DNA from: Salaquimonas sp.
GTDB taxonomy: Bacteria; Pseudomonadota; Alphaproteobacteria; Rhizobiales; Rhizobiaceae
Direction of reading: 5' to 3'
Length of the DNA: 64,000 bases
Assembly (NCBI GenBank): GCA_049680405.1
Contig: JBAUHS010000010.1
Coordinates: 3,777-67,776, forward strand
Shown here: positions 803 to 61,146 of the stretch, in pieces
Layout: each line of letters begins with the position of its first letter
Numbering within the stretch: the stretch's first letter is position 1
The notes under the pieces: model-generated
What the model saw: only the letters and a program-made list of their open reading frames with translations
The model's database searches: none
Told to the model about the DNA's origin: nothing
Program-made: the position numbers and the translations under genes

Positions 803-2407
803 CTAAGTCACTTTATTCGGCTGAGTATTTTTCAAATCTGCATCATGGTTTAAGTCAGTAGCTTCTACTTCATTTCCAAGGTCCGCTTCGGCTATCTGCT
901 TCATCAAAGCCTTTTCTTCCTTGCGCATCTGACGGCGTTTCTTGGCCGCTATTCTTGTTGCCCTATAAACGACTCGTCCTCTAAACACCGCATTTGAAAC
1001 GGCAGTGCTACCTTTTTGAACCCCTTCAAGCTCTGCGGAATAAGCAATTGCGAGAGCTTCACGCATGGTTGAGATGCCCTTTGTGGTTTCCACATGAAAG
1101 CGGCGAATGGTCAGCATCCAGATTGGTGAAATCATCAGCGAAACAGCGATAACTGACAAAGCCAGACGATAAGAATCTGCATCCAGAACCTGATTGGCTA
1201 TTCCGACCGAAGCCAGAATGAACGAAAACTCACCGATCTGTGCCATGGCTAGCCCGGAGGGTAGAGCCACATCCCAATCAAAACCAACCCGCCGAACCAG
1301 CAGAATATTCAAGAAAGTTTTGGCAATCACCGTCAACAATACAAAGGTAAGAACCAATCCCCAATTTGCCACGATATAATCAAGATCGATCAACAGCCCT
1401 ACTGACAGAAAGAACACAAAAACCAAAATGGACTGGACCGGATAGGTCAGTTCGATTGCCTCGCTTCGCAAAGTGGAATTTGCCACAACGAGACCCGCGA
1501 TGAAGGCGCCATAGACAGCAGACAGACCAAACAATGCACTGACGGTTGCGGCAGCGAAGCAAAGCGCAAGCATGGCCAATGTAATTAGATCGGGTTTGCC
1601 TTTTACATATTTTGTAAAAGGTAGTGTGATTTTTCCCGGTTTATTGAGATACCATATCAAGAGGCCTAACAGAGCGATTGAGCCGGCTATCAGGGCAATT
1701 GTAGCAATGCCAATACCCCCACCGTCAGCGCCGCCGAGACTTTGAGCAATGATAAGCATGGGAACAATGGCAATATCCTGGGCAATCAAAACGCCCACAG
1801 TGATACGACCTGTTTCCGTTCGTAACTCGCCGATATCCTCCAACACCTTGATGGCAACAGCCGTCGAAGAAAGCGCGACTACAAAACCAAGAAGAATGAT
1901 TTGCGGCCAACTCCAATCTAGATACCAACCAAGTATCAGCGTGACACCCATGCCTGCGATCACCTGACCTGTGGCAATCAATACTGAGGGAATCAGAACC
2001 AACACGAAGGCACGGACCGAGAGTTCCATGCCAATGAGAAAAAGCAGAAGCAAAACACCTAACTCAGCAAGCAATGTGATTGATTCAGACTGAACAACCA
2101 TTCCAAACCCTGTAGGGCCGAGCAGAATACCCGCCGCGATATAGCCAACAATAGGTGGCTGACGAAGACGAACGAAAATTAGTCCCAGGATCACCGCCAG
2201 TGATGCGACAGCAGCTATCGATCCCAGTTGTGACAGAGTGTCGTGAGCGCCAGACGCGTGCGTGTCACCAAGTGCTTCAACGGTTGTTTGAAGCACTTCA
2301 GCAGATTTTTCGATGACGGTTTCGACGGTCTCTTCCAAGGGACGGGTTCCAGCTGATTTGTTTCCAGCATAGATGAAAACGAAGTTGGATAGCAACGCCA
2401 ATCCCAA
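803..2407 (-). CDS. Monovalent cation:proton antiporter, CPA2/Kef-like, with charged C-terminal tail
   Basis: 534-aa polytopic membrane protein with about 12 hydrophobic segments. The signature GYIAAGILLGPTGFG...LLLFLIGMEL is typical of the Na_H_Exchanger family. The TTG start is uncertain. Confidence 0.75.
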   Translation of the reverse strand: MGLALLSNFVFIYAGNKSAGTRPLEETVETVIEKSAEVLQTTVEALGDTHASGAHDTLSQLGSIAAVASLAVILGLIFVRLRQPPIVGYIAAGILLGPTGFGMVVQSESITLLAELGVLLLLFLIGMELSVRAFVLVLIPSVLIATGQVIAGMGVTLILGWYLDWSWPQIILLGFVVALSSTAVAIKVLEDIGELRTETGRITVGVLIAQDIAIVPMLIIAQSLGGADGGGIGIATIALIAGSIALLGLLIWYLNKPGKITLPFTKYVKGKPDLITLAMLALCFAAATVSALFGLSAVYGAFIAGLVVANSTLRSEAIELTYPVQSILVFVFFLSVGLLIDLDYIVANWGLVLTFVLLTVIAKTFLNILLVRRVGFDWDVALPSGLAMAQIGEFSFILASVGIANQVLDADSYRLALSVIAVSLMISPIWMLTIRRFHVETTKGISTMREALAIAYSAELEGVQKGSTAVSNAVFRGRVVYRATRIAAKKRRQMRKEEKALMKQIAEADLGNEVEATDLNHDADLKNTQPNKVT

Positions 2408-2513: not shown

Positions 2514-4256
2514 TTACATATTCGGATAAACAGGACCCTCGCCACCTTGTGGTGGGACCCAATTGATATTTTGGTTAGGGTCCTTGATATCACAGGTCTT
2601 GCAGTGAACGCAGTTTTGGAAATTGACTACAAATTTCGCGCCTTCCAACTCGCCTTCACCATTGATGATGGTGTTGCCTGCAGCATCAACCCATTCATAA
2701 ACCCCTGCCGGGCAATAACGGCTGGATGGGCCTGCATATTTAGCCAATTCCGACGTGTTTTGCAGTTCAATATCCTTCACATGCAAGTGGGCTGGCTGCT
2801 CTTCGGCATGATTGGTGTTGGACAAGAATACCGATGACAAACGGTCAAATGTTAATTTCCCGTCAGGCTTGGGGTAATCAATTTTCTTGTGAGCCGAGGC
2901 CAATTCAGTTGCCTGATAATCCCATTTTTGATGATGCATTGTGCCGAAGGGTGACCACTTCAATATCGTGTTGCACCACATCTCGAAACCAGATGCCATG
3001 GTGCCCCACAAAGTACCCCATTTGCTGACAAGCGGTTTGACATTGCGAACACGTTTCAGGTCTTTGCCGATTTCGCTTTCGCGCCAAGCATTTTCATATT
3101 CAATCAGCTCATCCTGCTCTCGTCCGGCAGCAATTGCTTCGGCAACTTTTTCAGCGGCCAGCATGCCGGACAACATGGCATTGTGAGAACCCTTGATGCG
3201 CGGGACATTCACAAAACCTGCTGAACAGCCGAGCAATGCTCCGCCGGGAAAGCATAATTTTGGAACTGACTGCCATCCACCTTGGGTGATGGCTCGAGCG
3301 CCATAAGAAATGCGTTTTCCGCCTTCCAGAAGCTCTGCGACTTTCGGGTGTGTTTTGAAGCGCTGGAACTCTTCGAATGGAGACAAATACGGATTCTTGT
3401 AGCCAAGCGCGACGACGAAGCCGACATACACCTGGTTATTATCAATGTGATATATAAATGAACCGCCATCGGTTGAAGTATCCAGTGGCCAGCCGAAAGA
3501 GTGGGAAACATGACCCTGCTTGTGTTTGGCCGGATCAATCTCCCAAAGTTCTTTCATGCCAAGCCCAAATTTTTGCGGGTCGCTATCTTTGTCGAGATGA
3601 AACTTATTGATCAATTGTTTGGCAAGCGAACCGCGAACACCTTCGGAAATCAGCACATATTTGCCGTGTAGCTCCATTCCACGTTCAAAATTCGGACCAG
3701 GCTTTCCATCCTTGCCTACGCCCATATCACCTGTGGCAACGCCATATACTTCGCCTTTGTCGTTATAAAGGACTTCAGCGCCCGCAAAGCCCGGATAAAT
3801 TTCCACGCCCAAGGCTTCGGCTTTTTCGGCCATCCAGCGGCAAACATTGCCTAAAGAGACGATATAATTGCTGTGATTGTTCAATAGCGGCGGGAAAGCA
3901 AAATTAGGAAGCTTGAAGCCCCCCTTTTCACTTCGAAAATGAAACTCATCAGCTGTCACTTCCACTTTGAAGGGATGACCTTCATCGTCTTTCCAGTCAG
4001 GAATAAGTTTGTTGATCGCTATAGGGTCAACAACTGCGCCAGAGAGAATATGGGCACCGACCTCGGGTCCCTTCTCAAGGACAACAACGGTCAATTCCTC
4101 GTTCAATTGTTTCAGGCGAATAGCCGCGGATAATCCTGCGGGCCCCGCTCCAACGATCACCACATCAAAGGGCATGCTTTCGCGCTCTGGCAAAGCTGCT
4201 TGTTGGGATTCCGCTTCCATTTCAACTTCACTCGACGTTGTATTTTCTTCGGACAT
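2514..4256 (-). CDS. Electron-transfer flavoprotein-ubiquinone oxidoreductase (ETF-QO)
   Basis: 580 aa. N-terminal FAD fold DVVIVGAGPAGLSAA. C-terminal 4Fe-4S ferredoxin-like end NCVHCKTCDIKDP...WVPPQGGEGPVYPNM is characteristic of ETF-QO. Confidence 0.9.
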   Translation of the reverse strand: MSEENTTSSEVEMEAESQQAALPERESMPFDVVIVGAGPAGLSAAIRLKQLNEELTVVVLEKGPEVGAHILSGAVVDPIAINKLIPDWKDDEGHPFKVEVTADEFHFRSEKGGFKLPNFAFPPLLNNHSNYIVSLGNVCRWMAEKAEALGVEIYPGFAGAEVLYNDKGEVYGVATGDMGVGKDGKPGPNFERGMELHGKYVLISEGVRGSLAKQLINKFHLDKDSDPQKFGLGMKELWEIDPAKHKQGHVSHSFGWPLDTSTDGGSFIYHIDNNQVYVGFVVALGYKNPYLSPFEEFQRFKTHPKVAELLEGGKRISYGARAITQGGWQSVPKLCFPGGALLGCSAGFVNVPRIKGSHNAMLSGMLAAEKVAEAIAAGREQDELIEYENAWRESEIGKDLKRVRNVKPLVSKWGTLWGTMASGFEMWCNTILKWSPFGTMHHQKWDYQATELASAHKKIDYPKPDGKLTFDRLSSVFLSNTNHAEEQPAHLHVKDIELQNTSELAKYAGPSSRYCPAGVYEWVDAAGNTIINGEGELEGAKFVVNFQNCVHCKTCDIKDPNQNINWVPPQGGEGPVYPNM

Positions 4257-4408: not shown

Positions 4409-5269
4409 ATGATAGACCACCCGCTTCATATTCTGGAATGGCTCGCTGATATGGGCGATGACGTTCCTCTGGCTGATGCCCCCATCAATCGTTTTGGAGA
4501 AAGCGAGATGGCGCAAAAGGCTGCCAGTGAGCGCGCAACCAGCGCCGGCAAAGCCTCAACCGCTGGCTCAGGTGGTTCAAAAGGTAGCTTACAAGACCGC
4601 GTTGCCGCCATAAAGCAGACGACTAGTGCTCGAATACCAGCAAAACAAGCGGCGGTGCTGCCCGATGAATCAGTAGTGACAGCTGCCAGCAAAGCTGCGG
4701 CCAGTGCAGAAACCATAGAGGCGTTAAAAGCAGCAATTAGGGGATTTGAAGGCTGTAATCTGCGACTTAATGCCAAAAACTCTGTTTTTGCATCTGGCGA
4801 TCCAAATGCAAAATTGCTGCTGATTGATGAGCATCCAGGGCGTGACGAAGATCAATCAGGCGAACCATTTGCAGGGCGTTCAGGTTCCCTATTGCAAAAG
4901 ATGCTGGCTGCAATTGGCCTGACCCTTGATGATACCTATCGCGTCGCTGCTTTGCCTTGGCATCCCCCGGGCAACCGCAGCCCAACGCTGCCTGAACTTG
5001 AAATTTGCAAACCCTTTTTGAAACGCCACTTGTCGCTGGCCAAGCCAAAACTCATCATCACCATGGGCAACACTCCGGCTCGAATGCTGATTGAAAGCAA
5101 TTCGCAAGTGTTGAGTCTTCGCGGAAAATGGATGCAAAGTGATATGATCAGCGATGAACAGCATTGCCTTGCGACGCTCAATCCTGGCTTTCTATTGAAA
5201 CAGCCTGCGCAAAAGAAACTCGCCTGGTTCGACCTTTTGATGATCAAAAGCAAACTGGCCGAAAGCTGA
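4409..5269 (+). CDS. Uracil-DNA glycosylase, family 4, with Ala/Ser-rich N-terminal extension
   Basis: 286 aa. The C-terminal core has the family-4 pattern LLLIDEHPGRDEDQSGEPFAGRSGSLL...NPGFLL. It is divergent from ETF-QO, as is common in alphaproteobacteria. Confidence 0.75.
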   Translation: MIDHPLHILEWLADMGDDVPLADAPINRFGESEMAQKAASERATSAGKASTAGSGGSKGSLQDRVAAIKQTTSARIPAKQAAVLPDESVVTAASKAAASAETIEALKAAIRGFEGCNLRLNAKNSVFASGDPNAKLLLIDEHPGRDEDQSGEPFAGRSGSLLQKMLAAIGLTLDDTYRVAALPWHPPGNRSPTLPELEICKPFLKRHLSLAKPKLIITMGNTPARMLIESNSQVLSLRGKWMQSDMISDEQHCLATLNPGFLLKQPAQKKLAWFDLLMIKSKLAES

Positions 5270-5288
5270 TTTGGCCTCGTTAGCTAGC

Positions 5289-6374
5289 TTACGCCCGTGC
5301 CGCTAAAAACGACTTGACGGAAATGTTCGACCATTTGCCCAGATGTTGTGCGGCGCCAGTATAACTTGCCACGATACGCGCTGTCAGTTCGTCACGCTCT
5401 GCCAATTCAGACATGACCTCGCCTGTTGCTTGCTTGGCAGCAGCGATCACATCTTTAGGAAATTCACGCAATATAACGCCATGGTCTTTTTGTAGCATTG
5501 CCAATGCAGTTGCATTTTCCCATTCTGCATCGCACAGGGAAATCATGTTTACCCATTCACAGGCTTTGGCCACAATTTGCTGCAAATCCGTTGGTAGGGC
5601 ATCCAATGCCTTCAGCGAGACCAGTGCTTCACCGGTTCCGTTTGGCTCGTGAAAGCCGGGAAAATAGTAATTCTTGGCAACTTTATAAAAGCCCATGGCG
5701 CTATCACTAAAAGGGCCCAGAAATTCAGTTGCATCAATAACGCCCGTTTGAAGGCTGGTGAATATTTCACCGGGAGCAAGGCCAACAGGGACAGCGCCAA
5801 GCTTTTGGACAACCAGGCCACCTAGACCGGGCATACGAATTTTGAGTCCTTGGAAGTCCGCAACCGACTTGATTTCATTGCGATACCATCCTCCCATTTG
5901 ATAACCGGTATTGCCCGCCATGAAAGGTTTCAAGCCAGCTGGCTTATACAATTCGTCCCAAAGTTCCTGGCCGCCGCCTTTTGTGATCCATGTATTATGT
6001 TCAAGAGGTGTCAGGCCAAAAGGTGCCGCGGTAAAAATTGGCGCTGCGGGCATTTTACCTGCCCAAAACAATGGCGCTGTATGGGCAATTTCAGCGGTGC
6101 CATTTGAAACAGCTGAAAACACTTCCAATGGCGGCACCAATTCTCCTGCAGCAAACAAGCGAATAGTCAGCCGTCCATCGGAAAGTGATGTGATTGTATC
6201 AGCCAATAGTTGCGCCGAAACGCCGGGACCGGGAAGATTCTTCGGCCAGGAAGTCACCATTTTCCATTCGAAGGTTTCACCTGCCGCATTGGCGGCTTTT
6301 ACCGGGAGAGCCAAACCTGTGGCTGCGGACATTCCGGCAAAGGCCTTTAACGCTTGTCTTCTTGTAGAATTCAT
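5289..6374 (-). CDS. TRAP transporter substrate-binding protein (DctP/COG4663-type), orphan
   Basis: 361 aa. Tat-like signal MNSTRRQALKAFAG...A. The core matches the DctP family (FEWKMVTSWPKNLPG...). No DctQ/M genes are adjacent. Confidence 0.8.
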   Translation of the reverse strand: MNSTRRQALKAFAGMSAATGLALPVKAANAAGETFEWKMVTSWPKNLPGPGVSAQLLADTITSLSDGRLTIRLFAAGELVPPLEVFSAVSNGTAEIAHTAPLFWAGKMPAAPIFTAAPFGLTPLEHNTWITKGGGQELWDELYKPAGLKPFMAGNTGYQMGGWYRNEIKSVADFQGLKIRMPGLGGLVVQKLGAVPVGLAPGEIFTSLQTGVIDATEFLGPFSDSAMGFYKVAKNYYFPGFHEPNGTGEALVSLKALDALPTDLQQIVAKACEWVNMISLCDAEWENATALAMLQKDHGVILREFPKDVIAAAKQATGEVMSELAERDELTARIVASYTGAAQHLGKWSNISVKSFLAARA

Positions 6375-7907: not shown

Positions 7908-8683
7908 GATAGCCTCGCCTTTGTCTTTAACTGGTCCATTTGTATGTTTTGTATCTGGTCAATTAACGCGGCTTGAAAACTGCCAACACCACTGCATTGT
8001 TCCGCAGCAACTTCTCCGGCAATTCCAACCCAGCAGAATGCTCCCAAGGCAGCCGCCATTTTATTATTCGTCTTTGCCAACAGTCCAGCCATCAATGCGC
8101 CTTGCGCGCACCCAACTGCCGTTACTTTTGAGAGATAAGGATGCCCATTTGCTATGGTGATTTCACTTCGGCCAAAACGTAGAACATCTTCTTTTCCAGA
8201 TATCGCTACTGCCGAAGCCTCATTATCAAATAATGTGCTCAGCATTTCAGCTTCTGCACCGTTCAGCCGAATGATACCTGGGGCAGCAGCTATCACTTCC
8301 TGCGCCAACTCCAGTCTTGGAGGCGAGATGTGGCACATCACTGGGTCAAGAACGAAAGGTTTTTCCTCAACCCTGCAGACTCCCATGGATTTGCGGATCG
8401 CCTGCTTGCGGAGCTCATCCATCGTTCCAAGATTAATCAATACAGCATCAGAACGAGCCGAGAAGAATTCCACTTCATCAGGAGCAACGGTCATTGAAGG
8501 TGTGGCGCCAGCGCTCAACAGAATATTGGCGGTAAAGTTTTGAGCAACGGTATTGGTGATGCAATGCACGACAGCGCTATCCAGGCGCAGTTCAGAGATA
8601 GCCTCAAGTGCCTCCTCCAAGGTTTCCATCAGATTTTGTTCTTTAGCAGACACGTCAAACTCACCACAAATAGCTCTGGCCAT
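7904..8683 (-). CDS. thiM: Hydroxyethylthiazole kinase
   Basis: 259 aa. VHCITNTVAQNFTANILLSAGATPSM is the ThiM signature. The start could instead be the internal Met at 8629. Confidence 0.85.
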   Translation of the reverse strand: MARAICGEFDVSAKEQNLMETLEEALEAISELRLDSAVVHCITNTVAQNFTANILLSAGATPSMTVAPDEVEFFSARSDAVLINLGTMDELRKQAIRKSMGVCRVEEKPFVLDPVMCHISPPRLELAQEVIAAAPGIIRLNGAEAEMLSTLFDNEASAVAISGKEDVLRFGRSEITIANGHPYLSKVTAVGCAQGALMAGLLAKTNNKMAAALGAFCWVGIAGEVAAEQCSGVGSFQAALIDQIQNIQMDQLKTKARLS

Positions 8684-8719
8684 GAGGTGTAGAAAACGCG
8701 CTTGTTCAGGATAGGACTT

Positions 8720-8815
8720 GCGCTCATTCCCTACGCCGGCATGACCCGGATCAGGTTCAAGGAGTTAGCAGACTTCTACCTGCCTCTCAGCCTGATTGGA
8801 TCAGGCACCTCCATG
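8720..8815 (-). promoter_or_regulatory. TPP (THI-box) riboswitch in the thiMED leader
   Basis: The minus strand reads GGAGGTGCCTGATCCAATCAGGCTGAGAGGCAGGTAGAAGTCTGCTAACTCCTTGAACCTGATCCGGGTCATGCCGGCGTAGGGAATGAGCG. It contains the conserved CUGAGA and ACCUGAUCnGGnnnAUGCCnGCGUAGGGA cores of the TPP aptamer. Confidence 0.9.
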
Positions 8816-8887
8816 AGATGACAGTTACATAACCCCTTGTGAGAATGAGTTCAAGTTTACTGTAATATTATGTAGCATAACAGCCTA

Positions 8888-9478
8888 TTAAGGCCTGAAA
8901 AGTACTGCGATGAAAACCACGGCAAGCATTGCTATTGCCATTGTGTAATTGATCTTACGCTGGGTGGATTCGTGCAAATCCATTCGGTTCAAGGTAACTC
9001 CAGCCCATAGCCATGCAAAATGGATGGGTATCCAAACCAGATTCATCAAGATCAGTTTCAAAGTGACTTCTAATGCCAATTGATCAGGCATGAAGGCAAA
9101 GCCGCTCATAAGAGTTGTGTGAACAACATAAGCCTTTGGATTGATTGCCTGCAACAGCAAGCCACCCATGAATCCGGGTGGTTGATCGGATCGGATAAAG
9201 GCAATTTTGGAACCGGAAAAGGCGATTTTGGCAGCGAGATAGAGCAGATAAGCCGACGAAGCCAGCAGCAGAATAATGCGCAACCAAGGAAAGGAAAACA
9301 GTACTGCTGCGAGCCCGGAAATCACAGCAAGAGCGACCAGATTGTTTCCAACCCAAAGACCGCCAACATAAGCAATGCCGGCCCGAAATCCGAAGCCTGA
9401 CCCAATGCCCGCAGTAGACAGCACTCCTGGTCCAGGAGTGATGATCAAAAGGAAAACAGCGCTAATAAAGGCAAGCAA
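8888..9478 (-). CDS. LysE/RhtB family amino-acid exporter
   Basis: 196 aa, six hydrophobic segments. The N-terminus ITPGPGVL is typical of the LysE family. Confidence 0.8.
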   Translation of the reverse strand: MLAFISAVFLLIITPGPGVLSTAGIGSGFGFRAGIAYVGGLWVGNNLVALAVISGLAAVLFSFPWLRIILLLASSAYLLYLAAKIAFSGSKIAFIRSDQPPGFMGGLLLQAINPKAYVVHTTLMSGFAFMPDQLALEVTLKLILMNLVWIPIHFAWLWAGVTLNRMDLHESTQRKINYTMAIAMLAVVFIAVLFRP

Positions 9479-9481
9479 AAT

Positions 9482-11785
9482 CTATTCGCTTTTTGCTTGT
9501 TGGATTGCTGCCCAAACTGTTTGTGGCAGAGCCGGACTATCAATATTGGCGATGCCATAGGCCTCTCTCAGCGCATGGGAGACTGCGTTCATGACCGCAG
9601 GGCATGCGCCGATAGTGCCCGCCTCTCCGGCGCCTTTCATACCCATGGCATTGGTCGTTGAAGGCACATTTCTGGTTTCAAAATGAAAATTTGGAATCTC
9701 CGCTGCCCTTGGCATTGAATAATCCATGAAAGTTGCTGTTAAAAGCTGACCTTCATCATCATAAAACACACGCTCATTGAGGCATTGGCCAATGCCTTGA
9801 ACCACGCCTCCATGGATTTGTCCTGCCAGAAGAATCGGATTCACCGTGACGCCAAAATCATCAACAATGGTATAGGCCACCACATCGGTTTTTCCGGTAT
9901 CAGGGTCAACTTCCACTTCACAGATATGCGTGCCGTTTGGATAGGTCGCCTCATTCTGCTGGTATTCACCTTCACTATTGCGATCTTCTTTCGACGCTGC
10001 AGCGGCGATTGCAGCAAATGACATTGCCCGGTCTGTTCCTACAATGCGCGCTTCACCATTGCTTAACTCAATGTCGCCAGCTGAAGCTTCTAATTGGTCG
10101 GCAGCAACTTTCTTCATTTTTTTGGCCAGATTTTCGGACGCATAGACAACGGAAACTCCGCCAAGCGGAACAGAACGCGACCCACCGGTTCCTCCACCAT
10201 TGGCAAGCACTTTCGTGTCGCCCTGATGCACTGTGATCTGATCAATATCGACGCCAAATTTTTCTGCTGCCAATTGAGAATAGGCAGTGGCATGGCCTTG
10301 GCCGTTTGATTGGGTACCAATCCGAATGAGGATTTTACCATCTTCTTGCAATGTTGCGAAAGCTGGCTCTGAGCCGGCAAAGGCACAAGCCTCAATATAG
10401 GTCGCCATGCCTATACCGCGAATTTTGCTGCGTGATTTAGCCTCTTCATTACGGATATCAAAGCCCACCCAATCGGCCCGCTCCATACAAAGCTTCATAT
10501 GTTCGTTGAATTCGCCAGTATCATACATACGCCCGCCGGGAGTGGTGTAAGGAAGATTTTCAGTTGCAATAAAATTGATCGAACGGATTTCGTCTCTGCC
10601 CATTCCCATCTCAATAGCGCACTGATCTGCTAAGCGCTCAATCAGATAAGCCGCTTCTGGTCGCCCTGCTCCCCTATAGGCATCCAGTGGTGTCGTATTA
10701 GTATAGGTTCCACGGCAAGTAATCGCCATTGCTGGAATGTCGTAAATCCCGGTTGTCATCGTCATTCCCAACCACGGAATATAGGGTCCATAACAATGCA
10801 GATATGCACCCATGGCGGCAATCAGATCGACATCCATCGCAAGAAATTTTCCATTCTTGTCCATTGCCATTTTTGCATAGGCAACATTATCCCGGCCATG
10901 AGCGTCGGCGACAAAGTGTTCTGAACGGTCTGACGTCCATTTTACCGGGCGACCAAGGCGTTTGGCAGCCTCCATGGTCAGTGGATATTCACGATAGGGG
11001 AAAACCTTGGTTCCAAAACCGCCACCCACATCCGGCGTAATGACTCGAATCCGGTCAGGATTTTCTCCAGTGATCTTGGCAAGGTGACGTTTGATACCAT
11101 GGGCACCCTGGGAGCAAACAGTAACTGTATAGCCGTCTTCTTCGTTCCATTCAGATACGCAAGAGCGTGTCTCCATGTAATTGCAGATCAAGCGATTATT
11201 GATGATCTTCATTTGCGTGACATGGTCTGCTTTGGCAAATAGCTCATCGGTCTTTTTCTGATCACCGAGGAAAGTCTTGAAGGCCAGATTGGTTCCGGTT
11301 TCAGGATAAACCAAAGGCGCATCAGCGGCCAAACAACCCTCCGTGTCCACCACCACAGGCAGCCCATCAAACTCAATATCAATCAGTTCAGACGCATCTT
11401 TTGCCAAAGCAACGCTATCGGCAACGATGAAGGCAATTGCATCCCCGATATGCTTGACTTCATCAACGCATAGAACCGGAAGGTTCTGATTGACGATTTT
11501 CGAGCCATCAGCATTTTTTATGGGAGTTACATTTTCAAGTGGATTGAGATGGCCAATATCTGCGCCGGTCAAAACGAGATGCACGCCTTCACTTTGCTGA
11601 GCTGCCGAAACATCATTGATCTTGAATTTGGCATGGGCATAGGGCGAACGCAGTACAAACCCCTTCAACACGCCTTCTGGTGAGAAATCATCTGTATAAC
11701 GGCCTTTACCTGTTGCAAACGCATCATCTTCCTTACGCAGGACAGAAGCGCCTATGCCGAATTTCGCGTGCACTGTCTCATTCAT
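9482..11785 (-). CDS. Xanthine dehydrogenase/CoxL-family molybdopterin-binding subunit (orphan large subunit)
   Basis: 767 aa. The N-terminal Ald_Xan_dh_C motif GKGRYTDD and the overall length and pattern match aerobic-type CO dehydrogenase/aldehyde oxidase large chains. Confidence 0.85.
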   Translation of the reverse strand: MNETVHAKFGIGASVLRKEDDAFATGKGRYTDDFSPEGVLKGFVLRSPYAHAKFKINDVSAAQQSEGVHLVLTGADIGHLNPLENVTPIKNADGSKIVNQNLPVLCVDEVKHIGDAIAFIVADSVALAKDASELIDIEFDGLPVVVDTEGCLAADAPLVYPETGTNLAFKTFLGDQKKTDELFAKADHVTQMKIINNRLICNYMETRSCVSEWNEEDGYTVTVCSQGAHGIKRHLAKITGENPDRIRVITPDVGGGFGTKVFPYREYPLTMEAAKRLGRPVKWTSDRSEHFVADAHGRDNVAYAKMAMDKNGKFLAMDVDLIAAMGAYLHCYGPYIPWLGMTMTTGIYDIPAMAITCRGTYTNTTPLDAYRGAGRPEAAYLIERLADQCAIEMGMGRDEIRSINFIATENLPYTTPGGRMYDTGEFNEHMKLCMERADWVGFDIRNEEAKSRSKIRGIGMATYIEACAFAGSEPAFATLQEDGKILIRIGTQSNGQGHATAYSQLAAEKFGVDIDQITVHQGDTKVLANGGGTGGSRSVPLGGVSVVYASENLAKKMKKVAADQLEASAGDIELSNGEARIVGTDRAMSFAAIAAAASKEDRNSEGEYQQNEATYPNGTHICEVEVDPDTGKTDVVAYTIVDDFGVTVNPILLAGQIHGGVVQGIGQCLNERVFYDDEGQLLTATFMDYSMPRAAEIPNFHFETRNVPSTTNAMGMKGAGEAGTIGACPAVMNAVSHALREAYGIANIDSPALPQTVWAAIQQAKSE

Positions 11786-35140: not shown

Positions 35141-35374
35141 TTAGCCTTTGAAGGATTTGGTGACCACCCTTGGTGGCTTGCCATTTTGGCCGGGGATTCG
35201 AAATGTTGCTTCGCACTGACCATTTCCCTGATCAGAAACGCTCAATACTTCGGCATTATCTTGAGCTGCTACATTTCTTGCTTGAGCCGCGCAATCAGCT
35301 GCCTGCCCCAAAGAGGGAGAGGTTACAAAGGTGATTATTGCAATCACAAAAAATGGTAAAGCGCGTGTTTTCAT
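35141..35374 (-). CDS. Small exported protein (PepSY-like?)
   Basis: 77 aa. The signal peptide MKTRALPFFVIAIITFVTSPSLGQA is followed by a two-Cys domain of about 50 aa. No confident family assignment. Confidence 0.45.
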   Translation of the reverse strand: MKTRALPFFVIAIITFVTSPSLGQAADCAAQARNVAAQDNAEVLSVSDQGNGQCEATFRIPGQNGKPPRVVTKSFKG

Positions 35375-35437
35375 GATGCAGTCTTAGCATTGTAAATCTG
35401 AACGGGAAATGAATACATCATCTCCTCAGTGTGTTTT

Positions 35438-35662
35438 CTACTCTGAACAGATCGCACCTAAAACAGCATTGTGTTCCGCGATTTGCATGACTGTCTCCTC
35501 CGCATCTTCATGTTGCCAGATGATTGGTAAAAACGCTATGCATATCCAAGCAAAGTCATTGCTCAGCTGGATTGCGGATTGCGGCCTTGTTGAGCTAGTC
35601 GTCTTGCAACTTGTCAGGAGCAATATCGCGACTATGCTTAGCAGAATGAGAGGCCCGGACAT
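35438..35662 (-). CDS. o-spanin-like (Rz1/LysC-like) lipoprotein, overlapping the preceding ORF out of frame
   Basis: From the internal ATG at 35662, MSGPLILLSIVAILLLTSC has a canonical lipobox. The C-terminal PIIWQHEDAEETVMQIAEHNAVLGAIC resembles the PI..S..D...T..QI..HN....C pattern of alphaproteobacterial phage Rz1-type proteins. It overlaps the 3' end of 35595..35831 by 68 nt. Confidence 0.45.
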   Translation of the reverse strand: MSGPLILLSIVAILLLTSCKTTSSTRPQSAIQLSNDFAWICIAFLPIIWQHEDAEETVMQIAEHNAVLGAICSE

Positions 35663-35831
35663 CCCGCCGGGCCTTGAGTGCTTTGATAAGCATATCATGG
35701 GAGTTTGCCTTGAATTGATTCTGGGTTTCGAGTTTGATCTTTTTGCTCAACTTTCGTTCAGACATGAAACGAACAAGTTGACGCAACAAACCAAGAATAG
35801 AAGCCAATACCGATAGCCATGCGGGAGTCAT
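35595..35831 (-). CDS. i-spanin-like protein (N-terminal anchor plus charged helical tail)
   Basis: 78 aa. The hydrophobic N-terminus PAWLSVLASILGLL is followed by a K/R/E-rich helix. It starts 2 nt after the stop of the holin-like ORF. Confidence 0.4.
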   Translation of the reverse strand: MTPAWLSVLASILGLLRQLVRFMSERKLSKKIKLETQNQFKANSHDMLIKALKARRDVRASHSAKHSRDIAPDKLQDD

Positions 35832-35833
35832 TT

Positions 35834-36040
35834 TCAGGAAATGATATCGGTGGCCGAAAGGCGGCCATAAATGGCTAGCAAGGAACCAGCGGCTCCGACC
35901 AATTGAACCAATATGCTTGCCAGTTCAGCCTGGGCTGCCTGATCAATTGATATCCCAATTGTTGCAGACAGGGCAGCAGCCACTGCAATAAGTGAACCCC
36001 AAATGGTTTTCGATTCGTACCAGGGTTTTTCTTCAACCAT
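35834..36040 (-). CDS. Holin-like small membrane protein (two TM helices)
   Basis: 68 aa. The helices are TIWGSLIAVAAALSATIGI and LASILVQLVGAAGSLLAIYG, with short polar ends. It starts 25 nt after the g15 stop. Confidence 0.45.
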   Translation of the reverse strand: MVEEKPWYESKTIWGSLIAVAAALSATIGISIDQAAQAELASILVQLVGAAGSLLAIYGRLSATDIIS

Positions 36041-56644: not shown

Positions 56645-57394
56645 TTAAACATGACCAAGCGTGATCAATTTTTCCAGAACGTCAATGTTTGGCTTTCCGG
56701 TAACTTCCAGTTTGTTCTTGAGCTGAAAATCACTAATTGCGGCTTCTGTCTTGCTGCCATATACGCCATCAGCTTCAATCGTCGCAATTCCCGCATTGAC
56801 AATGCCAGCCTGGATTTTCTTGACGATATTTCTATCGTAAGCGGCTTTGTCACTTGAAGCGTTATTATTACCGGAAATTAGTGATTTTAGCGGATCATTG
56901 TTGGAAGCGCTTACAATTGTTGGCGTGTCGCGATAGATCTTGCTCAGCAATTCCTCGCTTGGATTGCCAGTTGGTTCCATGTCATGGCGCTTTTGGTATT
57001 GCACGATCGAATTGCGAGTAACCGGGCCAATCAAACCGTCAACCGTACCGGAAAAATCACCGCTTTCCAGCAATGCCTGTTGAACTGACGCAACCAATTC
57101 AGAGCGTTGCGGTTTTGCGGTAGATGTATCGCGAGCCGCATCCCCATTGGTTGGCAAAGGTGCTTGTTTGGCAGCATATTTGGATACCTTCACCGGCTTG
57201 ACCATAGGGGTAATTGACTGGGTGGTTGTCAAATCGCGCGTGGCCCAAATTGGATCGGGATGGCTGCCGCTTTGGGCATAAAATGCATTGCCAGCCACAA
57301 GGGCGAATGCGATTGCAAATGTGCAAGTGCCTGCAGCTACAGAAGGGTTGTTCTGGAGTGAGGAAAACAGGGTGTCCATAATGCTGTTTCTCAT
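56645..57394 (-). CDS. Peptidoglycan-binding domain protein (two PG_binding_1 repeats)
   Basis: 249 aa. N-terminal anchor. The repeats are DGLIGPVTRNSIVQYQKRHDMEPTG and DGVYGSKTEAAISDFQLKNKLEVTG. Confidence 0.75.
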   Translation of the reverse strand: MRNSIMDTLFSSLQNNPSVAAGTCTFAIAFALVAGNAFYAQSGSHPDPIWATRDLTTTQSITPMVKPVKVSKYAAKQAPLPTNGDAARDTSTAKPQRSELVASVQQALLESGDFSGTVDGLIGPVTRNSIVQYQKRHDMEPTGNPSEELLSKIYRDTPTIVSASNNDPLKSLISGNNNASSDKAAYDRNIVKKIQAGIVNAGIATIEADGVYGSKTEAAISDFQLKNKLEVTGKPNIDVLEKLITLGHV

Positions 57395-59897: not shown

Positions 59898-60734
59898 TTA
59901 TACAAAAGAATCCGGACGATAGCTGCTATCTCCCCAATGGTTCATTGGTTGCTTCCTTGGAGACGGGCGCAACCCATAATGTCTGACCAGCTCCCGCAAT
60001 GCAGTGCGCAGCATCAGCTTGGCTGAACGTGGCGGCCAATGAAGCTCTTTCTCTATTGTCTCAAGCCCTTTGAGAAAACAGCAAACATCCAGCAATATGT
60101 TGGAAAGCTCCGGCCCGAGCGCATTGACCATCTTCTCTATTCGTTTTCGGGCATCCATGGCAAAGTCAGAAATATCGGCTCCCATATTTGCGCTGCGCGA
60201 GCCCGTGGCAACACTTGCGGACCAGTTTGCTGAAATTCTTGGCTGTAACTGAGATTTTTCAAAATCAGACCGTAAACGCTCCCCAGCCTGGAACTCAAAT
60301 TCATTTAACCAGCATTTTCCATGCTTGTCCTTACGGGTATAGAGCCGGGACAAGGGCGATTCATTTTCGTTTACAGTGACCTGACTGGCTATTCCATTTT
60401 CCGCGATCGTTTTGACAACCGGAGCCAAATGTTGCGAGCGGTAATCCATATCAGGGTGCAATGCCGCAACCAGAACTGCCCTTCCCTCCGTAGTGATCGT
60501 GATGTCGTTTTCACATATGCTTAAAAATCCTTGCTTCTTGCATCTGAAAACTAGGTCAGATTCAAATTTGTAGGTTTTACCTTTTAGCTGAATCAGAAAC
60601 TGCGCGGCGCTCGCTTGAAAATGGGCGACCTCGTTGTTTGCATTTAGCAGCAGCTTCAAAAGCCTTAGCTGAGCCTTCTTTTGGTCTTTGCCTTTTGCAT
60701 CAGTCATGGGTTTTCTGCCTGTCAGCCAATTCAC
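59898..60734 (-). CDS. GafZ-like protein (DUF6456-type; C-terminal half of the GafA GTA activator / anti-terminator)
   Basis: 269-278 aa. The blocks ESPLSRLYTRKDKHGKCWLNEFEFQAGERLRSDF and LLDVCCFLKGLETIEKELHWPPRSAKLMLRTAL match what I recall as the DUF6456 signature. It overlaps the upstream DnaA-like HTH gene. Confidence 0.6.
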   Translation of the reverse strand: MNWLTGRKPMTDAKGKDQKKAQLRLLKLLLNANNEVAHFQASAAQFLIQLKGKTYKFESDLVFRCKKQGFLSICENDITITTEGRAVLVAALHPDMDYRSQHLAPVVKTIAENGIASQVTVNENESPLSRLYTRKDKHGKCWLNEFEFQAGERLRSDFEKSQLQPRISANWSASVATGSRSANMGADISDFAMDARKRIEKMVNALGPELSNILLDVCCFLKGLETIEKELHWPPRSAKLMLRTALRELVRHYGLRPSPRKQPMNHWGDSSYRPDSFV

Positions 60735-61146
60735 TCAGCGCCCGAGCGGAAACCAAAAGATTTTCCATTGCTTCCAGGCGCTTATCAAACTCCTGATTAT
60801 CCCGGAGATCTTCAACCAGCTTGCAGGCATGGGAAATCGTGGTGCGGTCACGGCCCATAAAATCTGCGACCCTGTGATAGGGAACCGAAAATACCGTATG
60901 CATCAAATACATCGCTACTTGGCGGGCAAGGCAGATATCGGCTTTCCCTCTTGAAGTGCCTGTCAGTTCCTTTGGCTCAATTCTCTCAAGAATGGAAACC
61001 AGCTTCAATACGAGGTTTCCCGCTATCCCATCATATTCTTGCTGTGTCTGGCTGACGTTTATTGGTTTGACCGCAGCAATAGGCGATCCCACTGATATGG
61101 GTCTGGGTTTATTATTCAAATAATCAGTTACGCTGTGATACATCAT
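60700..61146 (-). CDS. GafY-like protein (DnaA domain IV-type HTH; N-terminal half of the GafA GTA activator)
   Basis: 148 aa. ARQVAMYLMHTVFSVPYHRVADFMGRDRTTISHACKLVEDLR is a Bac_DnaA_C-type HTH. A GGGAGA RBS precedes the ATGATG start. Confidence 0.6.
   Translation of the reverse strand: MMYHSVTDYLNNKPRPISVGSPIAAVKPINVSQTQQEYDGIAGNLVLKLVSILERIEPKELTGTSRGKADICLARQVAMYLMHTVFSVPYHRVADFMGRDRTTISHACKLVEDLRDNQEFDKRLEAMENLLVSARALSELADRQKTHD

Follow-up and report, generated by a model that had tools for sequence, protein, structure and literature searches.

By which route do the particles of a gene transfer agent (GTA) leave the cell? This is known for two alphaproteobacterial models only, which rely on unrelated solutions, namely an unlinked holin-endolysin pair in Rhodobacter and the LypABC system in Caulobacter. 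For the clusters of Hyphomicrobiales (including Rhizobium and Agrobacterium) that resemble RcGTA, the GTA of Rhodobacter capsulatus, we know of no report of particle production or of a lysis route. The locus described here raises this question for one of these clusters. It lies on the minus strand of a stretch of 64,000 nucleotides (nt) from contig JBAUHS010000010.1, in the following designated the window, which stems from a metagenome-assembled genome of Salaquimonas sp. (Hyphomicrobiales, Salaquimonadaceae). There, an RcGTA-like head-tail cluster, which is complete from the terminase gene to g15 according to Pfam, is followed by three small open reading frames (ORF1, ORF2, and ORF3). Do these belong to the GTA, and could they serve the release of its particles?

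We propose that ORF1–ORF3 are a phage-derived lysis module, which was vertically inherited as the 3'-terminal genes of the RcGTA-like cluster in part of the Hyphomicrobiales. To this reading as a whole we assign a probability of roughly 0.55. That the three genes are by identity a phage lysis cassette devoid of an endolysin, inherited together with the GTA, is highly probable; a function in GTA release has about even odds.

Predicted holin and predicted o-spanin

ORF1, which is 100% identical to an NCBI protein from a metagenome-assembled genome of Salaquimonas sp., matched PHROG 34682 ("holin") over residues 5–58 with E = 1.1e-10. It belongs to no Pfam or NCBIfam family, nor do ORF2, ORF3, and the ORF that follows them (ORF4); for ORF1, DUF7940 was reached at E = 0.033 only, and no Pfam holin family matched. 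The latter include PF11351, which we take to be the family of the RcGTA holin rcc00556. Transmembrane segments were judged by 19-residue hydropathy (KD19), for which the customary threshold is 1.6. Two hydrophobic segments of ORF1 (approximately residues 12–30 and 40–58) gave values of 1.79 and 1.92, and the C-terminal tail is short and weakly charged (R60, D65). In agreement with these segments, the AlphaFold2 model computed with 23 homologues is a helical hairpin (H11–27 and H34–63) with a confidence (pLDDT) of 78. A Foldseek search of BFVD with the models of ORF1 and ORF3 yielded no match at E ≤ 0.001; a few entries named "O-spanin" appeared at E > 2, which is uninformative, and were not used.

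Approximately 106 protein clusters homologous to ORF1 were found in public data, and nearly all of these proteins consist of exactly 68 amino acids (aa). Comparison of ORF1 with relatives at dS > 1 yielded dN/dS values of 0.08–0.13, which indicate that the gene is under strong purifying selection. On viral contigs, its homologues are flanked by endolysins and by overlapped pairs of a transmembrane protein and a lipoprotein. The endolysin is an Amidase_2 protein in phage 1N2-2 (L082) and in L115; in L121, L128, and L129 a PHROG-894 endolysin precedes the ORF1 homologue, and in L156 a GH108 endolysin lies nearby. The homologue from L128 matched PHROG 34682 even at E = 9.5e-15. In contrast to these phages, an endolysin adjoins ORF1 in none of the 81 genome loci introduced below, including the window. 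The Ala/Gly/Ser-rich first helix of ORF1 had suggested a pinholin that cooperates with a signal-anchor-release (SAR) endolysin; this idea was dropped, because the endolysins beside the phage homologues contain no N-terminal SAR-like segment. Taken together, the sequence data support the assignment of ORF1 to the GTA cluster as a homologue of phage holins and a predicted holin, as had been surmised in an earlier note on this DNA.

ORF3 matched PHROG 1275 ("Rz-like spanin") with E = 7.9e-7, and so did all 36 aligned relatives, the best of them with E = 4.7e-14. A word-indexed homologue search yielded nothing for ORF3, and ORF2 matched itself only. An exhaustive HMMER search was needed in order to recover the missed ORF3 family, which comprises 45 representative clusters with proteins of 44–165 aa. 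In its members, a variable linker joins the lipobox to the motif C-x-A-F-x-P-I-x-W-S-x-x-D-T-x-x-T-x-x-Q-I-x-E-H-N-A-V-W-x-x-L-C. Likewise, a tblastn search of phages with ORF3 of the window found no match, whereas matches were obtained with the phage protein orf30 and with a member closer to the centre of the family.

The lipobox of ORF3, noted earlier as LLLTS/C, is present; the pattern LTS/C places the lipidated residue at Cys31, with Lys at position +2, and leaves a mature protein of 56 aa. The relatives possess a lipobox as well, with Q, A, K, R, S, T, or M at position +2. As this residue is never Asp, ORF3 is predicted by the E. coli sorting rule to be transferred to the outer membrane. 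Cys31, Cys53, and Cys84 are invariant across 36 sequences of the family; of these, Cys53 and Cys84 would lie in the periplasm and could serve disulfide-linked dimers. The AlphaFold2 model begins with a signal helix and a disordered linker of low confidence and ends in a compact C-terminal domain of two helices, for which pLDDT is 86–96. The C-terminal pattern described in the earlier note also exists, albeit with nine instead of eight residues between PI and T (P58 I59 ... T69). Its attribution to outer-membrane spanins (o-spanins) of alphaproteobacterial phages was partly correct, but too narrow. Members of the family do occur in phages of the alphaproteobacteria Rhizobium, Aurantimonas, and Stappia; PHROG 1275 is, however, the family of the overlapped o-spanin of phage 1N2-2 and Yersinia phage PYps16N as well as of Stappia phage SI01, and "Rz1-like" genes of this family are also found in Chaseviridae phages of Yersinia and E. 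coli and in Shewanella phages. In SI01, the overlapped o-spanin gene is unannotated. The match to PHROG 1275, the lipobox, the residues at position +2, and the two invariant periplasmic Cys residues thus bear out the o-spanin-like character claimed earlier, and support the assignment of ORF3 as a lipoprotein of the o-spanin family and a predicted o-spanin.

Could ORF2 or ORF3, or both, be chance reading frames, the true gene being a 135-aa ORF on the opposite strand? Such a long antisense ORF exists, and the word-indexed search found no annotated ORF3 protein. However, gene callers are known to miss overlapped o-spanin genes (PMC6139136), and the antisense ORF is not conserved, since its counterparts range from 0 to 284 aa across the loci; we regard it as spurious. 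Given the 45 clusters that share the ORF3 motif, the PHROG 1275 match, and the confident model of the C-terminal domain, this explanation is effectively refuted.

A database protein of 113 aa (P0127) combines an ORF2-type N-terminus and tail in frame with the C-terminal domain of ORF3, but contains no lipobox. It is either a natural fusion of an inner-membrane spanin (i-spanin) with an o-spanin or the result of a frameshift error.

Linkage to g15 and retention of the genes

A scan with one genome per species identified 106 ORF1 loci; 80 of these were retrieved and counted together with the window (L001), which gave 81 loci. In 77 of them, the C-terminus of g15 lies less than 250 nt upstream of ORF1, in line with the earlier claim that the cassette is fused to the 3' end of the GTA cluster. 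The four exceptions are a contig without g15 within the available 2 kb (L008), a locus with an insertion sequence (IS) element (L022), a degraded GTA (L071), and a locus without GTA genes (L075). In L022, an IS-type transposase gene is located between g15 and ORF1; in L018, an insertion splits g15 into two ORFs. A second sample was chosen by means of g15 and consisted of the IMG/VR loci with enough downstream sequence that were found with an alignment of 11 g15 sequences. Here, ORF1 directly follows g15 in 38 of 65 loci, with a median gap of 32 nt. Furthermore, the provirus calls of IMG/VR regularly include ORF1 together with the GTA genes, and many of the predicted ends are located 3–650 nt after ORF1.

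It was also observed that a 103-kb GenBank entry named "Bacteriophage sp." (MW462191.1, L083) and most of the IMG/VR loci L084–L163 are bacterial RcGTA-like clusters. Dozens of the "viral genomes" of IMG/VR, each of roughly 14–15 kb, are of this kind.

The spacing within the window is tight, and coordinates and distances of the three packed ORFs were confirmed as noted before. The stop codon of g15 and the start codon of ORF1 are separated by 25 nt, with an AGGA ribosome-binding site 7 nt 5' of ORF1, and the gap between ORF1 and ORF2 measures 2 nt; the next gene after ORF3 follows at a distance of 63 nt. Length, gap, and the two hydrophobic segments of ORF1 thus agree with the first description. 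The overlap of ORF2 and ORF3, initially given as 68 nt, has this length if ORF3 starts at the internal Met13 (position 35662), but amounts to 104 nt for the longest version of ORF3.

The pair of ORF2 and ORF3 is less widespread than ORF1 and was found in 27 of the 81 ORF1-bearing species genomes. In these 27 genomes, both frames are open and overlapped in different reading frames, although synonymous divergence is saturated, a saturation that precluded an estimate of dN/dS for the two genes. In a tree of g15 sequences, the pair occurs in three of the four deep groups with scattered absences, which fits its presence in the ancestor. No member of the Rhizobium/Neorhizobium/Agrobacterium/Oricola/Aurantimonas group has it, and ORF1 alone remains there. 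A close relative with 87% ORF1 identity (L166, a contig from ENA) also lacks the pair; ORF2 and ORF3 are cleanly missing, and ORF1 is directly followed by a gene for a small secreted protein. Two other relatives (81–84% identity) retain the pair. Absence next to g15 in relatives, which the earlier note had named as a finding that would speak against it, was consequently seen for the spanin pair in two thirds of the genomes; ORF1 showed no such pattern. The most economical explanation is that the ancestor of the clade carried the trio at the 3' end of the GTA, and that the spanins were repeatedly lost while ORF1 was kept almost everywhere.

Under the proposed mechanism, transcription would continue from g15 into ORF1–ORF3, which would form the end of the late GTA transcript; the gaps are 25 and 2 nt long, and a search for terminator-like sites from g15 to ORF3 yielded none. 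In the few cells that produce GTAs, ORF1 would accumulate in the inner membrane and permeabilise it, and a muralytic enzyme encoded elsewhere would thereby gain access to the wall. A complex of ORF2 and ORF3 would span the periplasm and remove the barrier of the outer membrane, such that the particles could be released. In this scheme, we infer that the genes are co-transcribed with g15, how their products are oriented in the membrane, that ORF2 and ORF3 interact, that an endolysin exists and which one it is, and that the module acts in GTA release.

A strongly conserved holin gene that ends the clusters, together with an ancestral and often lost spanin pair, would offer a testable route for particle exit. 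The parts are ordinary phage lysis genes; the advance would therefore concern the biology and evolution of GTAs and not a new mechanism. The genes also show that, in this clade, the GTA "genome" should be delimited after ORF1 or ORF3 and not after g15.

The coordinates of all features are compiled in Table 1. The genes downstream of ORF3, which code for a small secreted protein, an OmpR-type response regulator, a PhoQ-like histidine kinase, and ccm proteins, are host genes. The secreted protein contains a conserved C...PPRVVTK motif and precedes the response regulator in most related loci, including those without ORF2 and ORF3; it belongs with the two-component system and not with the GTA. It resembles what we take to be FeuN of the FeuNPQ system, and the downstream genes presumably correspond to FeuPQ. 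On the other side of the cluster, approximately 10 kb upstream of the terminase gene, a DUF6456 protein and a DnaA-type helix-turn-helix (HTH) protein are encoded by two slightly overlapped genes. Judged from their domains, the two together resemble a GafA divided into two proteins, as in the GafY/GafZ type of GTA activator.

Table 1. Positions of the genes in the window and of selected features in related loci
Feature	Position	Strand	Description or basis
Window (Salaquimonas sp.)
Terminase	50109-48748	-	Pfam
Portal, protease, capsid, connector, head- and tail-completion proteins, tail tube, GTA-gp10	between terminase and g12	-	Pfam
DUF2460 (g12), g13, NlpC/P60 (g14)	preceding g15	-	Pfam
g15 (megatron/baseplate protein)	39932-36066	-	1288 aa; last structural gene; GTA_TIM (E = 8e-134), Phage-tail_3, Rcc01698_C (Pfam)
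ORF1	36040-35834	-	68 aa; two-helix membrane protein; phage holin homologue (PHROG 34682)
ORF2	35831-35595	-	78 aa; weakly hydrophobic N-terminus and charged Cys-free tail; i-spanin candidate by position and architecture
ORF3	35698-35438	-	86 aa; predicted outer-membrane lipoprotein of the o-spanin family (PHROG 1275); +1 frame relative to ORF2
Antisense ORF	35409-35816	+	135 aa; spurious
Secreted protein	35141-35374	-	77 aa
PG_binding_1 protein	56645-57394	-	249 aa
DUF6456 protein	59898-60734	-	278 aa; E = 1.9e-46
DnaA-type HTH protein	60700-61146	-	148 aa
Related loci
L166, ORF1 and secreted protein	1079-1680		ORF2 and ORF3 missing
L022, transposase	2624-3372		between g15 and ORF1
L018, insertion in g15	5180-6356		g15 split into two ORFs
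L071, ORF1	~8001-8201		Rhizobium sp. YTU87027
L075, ORF1	~8001-8201		Oricola cellulosilytica
L249, PYps16N ORF033	1335-1571		78 aa
L226, alternative 3'-end lysis configuration	8061-9457		lipobox LSAC
L246, alternative 3'-end lysis configuration	8438-10022
L237, alternative 3'-end lysis configuration

Objections and the endolysin question

Several points weigh against a lysis module of the GTA, and each has to be considered together with the explanation it favours. To begin with, we know of no demonstration of GTA activity in these bacteria. Moreover, the same response regulator is located 361–1076 nt downstream of ORF1 in 81 of the 81 loci. Gene order alone can therefore not assign the ORFs to the GTA, because the synteny with the regulator is equally conserved. 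ORF1 even persists where the GTA is degraded or gone. In L071 (Rhizobium sp. YTU87027), an intact ORF1 stands beside the response regulator and the GTA is reduced to fragments of g9 and g11; in L075 (Oricola cellulosilytica), ORF1 is likewise intact beside the regulator and no GTA exists in the 8 kb upstream. In addition, all genes from g15 through the ccm operon are located on one strand with short gaps. One might thus argue that ORF1, with or without ORF2 and ORF3, is an envelope gene of the host, which cooperates with the downstream two-component system and its secreted partner, and that the position after g15 is a mere matter of gene order. However, homologues of ORF1 and ORF3 reside within the lysis cassettes of bona fide phages, the ORFs are packed more closely against g15 than against the gene that follows them, and the provirus calls take in ORF1 together with the GTA. 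We consider this explanation very unlikely.

A second objection concerns the spanin pair, which is dispensable in many lineages, as it was lost many times; in L005, furthermore, the frame of ORF3 is broken. These losses, the lack of an endolysin at the cassette and among the scanned ORFs of the window, and the deviations of the window ORF2 described below would agree with a relic. In this case, the ORFs would be the remnant of an ancestral prophage cassette that lost its endolysin and whose spanins are decaying, and ORF1 would have been kept for another membrane function, or lysis would proceed via another system such as LypABC; Caulobacter GTAs indeed lyse their host by a non-holin route (PMC13236601). 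The dN/dS value of approximately 0.1 for ORF1 speaks against a relic. So does the state of ORF2 and ORF3, which, where kept, are intact and overlapped at saturated dS, with an invariant lipobox and three invariant Cys residues. It is therefore rather unlikely that the cassette is a mere remnant.

The third objection is raised by ORF2. An ORF2-type gene accompanies ORF3 in all 27 genome loci with ORF3, starts 0–20 nt after the stop codon of ORF1, and ends inside ORF3 in a different frame. The members of this family comprise 67–87 aa, with a hydrophobic N-terminus and a strongly charged tail that is free of Cys; in ORF2 of the window, 66% of the tail residues are polar or charged, and the number of Cys residues is 0. 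However, the C-terminal motif D-D-G-Y/F-R-R-D, which is found in most members, is absent from ORF2 of the window and from its Salaquimonas relatives. The N-terminal anchor originally assumed for this 78-aa protein is marginal as well: while its length, the 2-nt gap, and the charged tail were confirmed, the best KD19 value is 1.42, and Arg17 and Arg21 are located within the segment. No spanin was matched by the window ORF2 at E ≤ 1 in PHROG, and a comparison of the ORF2 profile with the i-spanin of phage 1N2-2 by means of hhalign gave a probability of 7%, which does not allow one to demonstrate homology.

ORF2 may accordingly be something else, for example a regulator of lysis such as an amphipathic peptide resembling antiholins, or an upstream frame without function, which would leave a holin and a lone lipoprotein. 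A KD19 value below 1.6 in 7 of the 24 relatives including the window, N-terminal segments with 1–5 charged residues, the lack of a significant match to an i-spanin profile, and the even weaker hydrophobic segment of the phage partner in L128 would fit this explanation. KD19 reaches at least 1.6 in 17 of 24 ORF2 relatives, but most carry 1–5 charges in the first 22 residues. On the other hand, 3 of the 24 weakly match PHROG 1026 (best E = 0.0053), while one matches PHROG 13. The invariable position between ORF1 and ORF3 speaks against this explanation, too. So do the length and the charged, Cys-free tail, which resemble the short i-spanins that accompany PHROG-1275 o-spanins in phages 1N2-2 (69 aa), PYps16N (78 aa), and SI01 (84 aa). 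These phage proteins have clear transmembrane domains and are similar to ORF2 in size and layout; that of 1N2-2 matches PHROG 1026 ("Rz-like spanin") with E = 2.5e-14. A role of ORF2 other than that of an i-spanin is hence unlikely. By position and architecture it is plausible, albeit unproven and without demonstrable homology, that ORF2 is an i-spanin.

The partner in PYps16N, ORF033 (L249), is annotated as "endolysin". With one transmembrane domain, a charged tail, and a gene that overlaps the Rz-1 gene, it looks like an i-spanin rather than the annotated enzyme.

The last objection is the absence of a wall-degrading enzyme. No endolysin adjoins the cassette, as the earlier note had already stated; its neighbours are g15 upstream and the genes of the secreted protein, regulator, kinase, and ccm operon downstream. 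A muralytic catalytic domain was not found among the Pfam-scanned ORFs of the window either, about twenty clearly housekeeping ORFs being judged by their N-terminal sequence only. A holin with spanins but without such an enzyme is an incomplete lysis system. The site that is occupied by the endolysin in phage cassettes corresponds to the 25-nt spacer between g15 and ORF1, and in none of the 81 loci is an endolysin located between these two genes. The larger gaps in relatives do not hide one, but result from the IS element in L022 and from the insertion that splits g15 in L018. A protein of the window with two PG_binding_1 domains was also considered. It has an N-terminal hydrophobic or transmembrane segment, but no catalytic domain was detected, and it was rejected as an endolysin; its gene adjoins a histidine kinase gene. 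The only wall-active protein nearby is g14 with its NlpC/P60 domain. RcGTA uses its g14, a peptidoglycan peptidase associated with the tail, for entry and needs it for assembly (PMC7296036). By analogy with R. capsulatus (PMC5026251), an endolysin encoded at an unlinked site is the default expectation.

An alternative that dispenses with a dedicated endolysin has a low probability. According to it, the RcGTA-like ancestor carried a full lysis cassette after g15, of which different orders kept complementary fragments: Rhodobacter the SleB-like g16, the Hyphomicrobiales clade the holin with or without spanins, and other lineages a fibre, an M15 endolysin, and spanins. The holin would admit the g14 NlpC/P60 peptidase of the particle or a host autolysin to the wall, and the spanins would contribute an optional third step. 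If true, endolysin-free release would be a third strategy of GTA exit beside the holin-endolysin pair of Rhodobacter and LypABC of Caulobacter. For the lysis module with an unlinked endolysin, which we prefer, the counterparts in phages and other GTAs are compared in the following.

Comparison with known systems

The closest counterpart of the cassette is found in the Idiomarinaceae phage 1N2-2 (NC_025439), which encodes an amidase (ORF27), a holin (ORF28), ORF29, and an Rz-like spanin (ORF30). The holin belongs to the same family (PHROG 34682) and is 39% identical to ORF1 of the window; the o-spanin also belongs to the same family (PHROG 1275). Holin, short i-spanin of approximately 70 aa, and overlapped lipoprotein follow each other in the same order and with the same spacing, directly after the tail fibre or spike region, which confirms the classic phage lysis layout recognised in the earlier note. 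Similar cassettes exist in the IMG/VR contigs L121, L128, and L129. Unlike the window, 1N2-2 has its Amidase_2 endolysin between tail spike and holin, and its i-spanin has an unambiguous transmembrane domain (KD19 of 2.40) and matches PHROG 1026, whereas ORF2 has neither. The host of 1N2-2 is a gammaproteobacterium.

The predicted spanins can further be compared with the known two-component spanins (Kongari et al. 2018), with which they share a lipoprotein o-spanin that has two periplasmic Cys residues and a helical C-terminal part, and an i-spanin candidate free of Cys. An i-spanin with 0 Cys residues next to an o-spanin with 2, as realised by ORF2 and by the two invariant periplasmic residues of ORF3, is the most frequent pattern among 528 catalogued two-component spanins (PMC6139136) and corresponds to the T4 PseT.3/PseT.2 type. 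The overlapped architecture, in which the o-spanin gene begins inside the i-spanin gene in the +1 frame and extends beyond it, is shared with the P2 LysB/LysC type. The pair of the window is shorter, with 78 aa and a mature protein of 56 aa, whereas the T4 proteins have 117 and 83 aa. ORF2 and ORF3 showed no similarity in sequence to the T4 and P2 prototypes, and the transmembrane domain of the i-spanin candidate is marginal.

In RcGTA, rcc00555 (endolysin) and rcc00556 (holin) likewise represent holin-type lysis genes of phage origin, for which a part in the release of an RcGTA-type particle has been proposed or shown (PMC5026251, PMC7296036). However, they are unlinked to the head-tail cluster, include the endolysin, and no spanin has been described, whereas the ORFs of the window are joined to g15. 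The position after g15 is occupied in RcGTA by g16 (rcc01699), which starts a few bases after g15, is co-transcribed with it, and closes the cluster; the best match of its predicted fold is the catalytic domain of the lytic transglycosylase SleB (PMC9552610). No phenotype has been demonstrated for g16, as disruption of rcc01699 is not among the mutations that impair gene transfer (PMC5026251). ORF1 has the position in common with g16, but its model is a two-helix membrane hairpin and not SleB-like.

Lysis genes at the 3' end of other RcGTA-like clusters have been reported previously. Shakya et al. 2017 described 22 large clusters with a 3'-end homologue of rcc00171, six of which also contain a homologue of rcc00555 (PMC5721377). 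In the IMG/VR loci L226, L237, and L246, we found g15 followed by a DUF2793 tail fibre, a DUF6127 membrane protein, a Peptidase_M15_3 endolysin, a single-transmembrane-domain protein of 81–83 aa, and an overlapped lipoprotein. From their arrangement, the latter two are candidates for a second GTA-linked spanin pair. As these variants were recovered, the attachment of lysis genes to RcGTA-like clusters is not unique to the clade studied here. The clusters of the Shakya type differ from the window in gene families, in the presence of an endolysin, and in a tail-fibre gene that intervenes, whereas holin and spanins of the window stand directly after g15. A Phage_lysozyme gene was observed in L170 and a GH19-like gene in L221. 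The contrast to RcGTA drawn in the earlier note, where lysis genes are unlinked, thus holds for rcc00555 and rcc00556, but has to be amended with respect to g16 and to the RcGTA-like clusters that carry a 3' endolysin.

A full-text literature search found neither a description of this holin in a GTA nor of any GTA spanin, in agreement with what had been noted before; ORF2 and ORF3 would hence be the first spanins tied to a GTA in the literature searched. The Caulobacter crescentus GTA finally illustrates the other known solution in an alphaproteobacterium. It has no holin-endolysin pair but uses the lysis hub LypABC (PMC13236601), which accomplishes dedicated GTA release without a recognisable holin-endolysin and contains immune-type (CARD-NLR-like) domains. 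LypABC is unrelated to the genes of the window in sequence and mechanism, whereas the cassette behind g15 is of the classical phage type.

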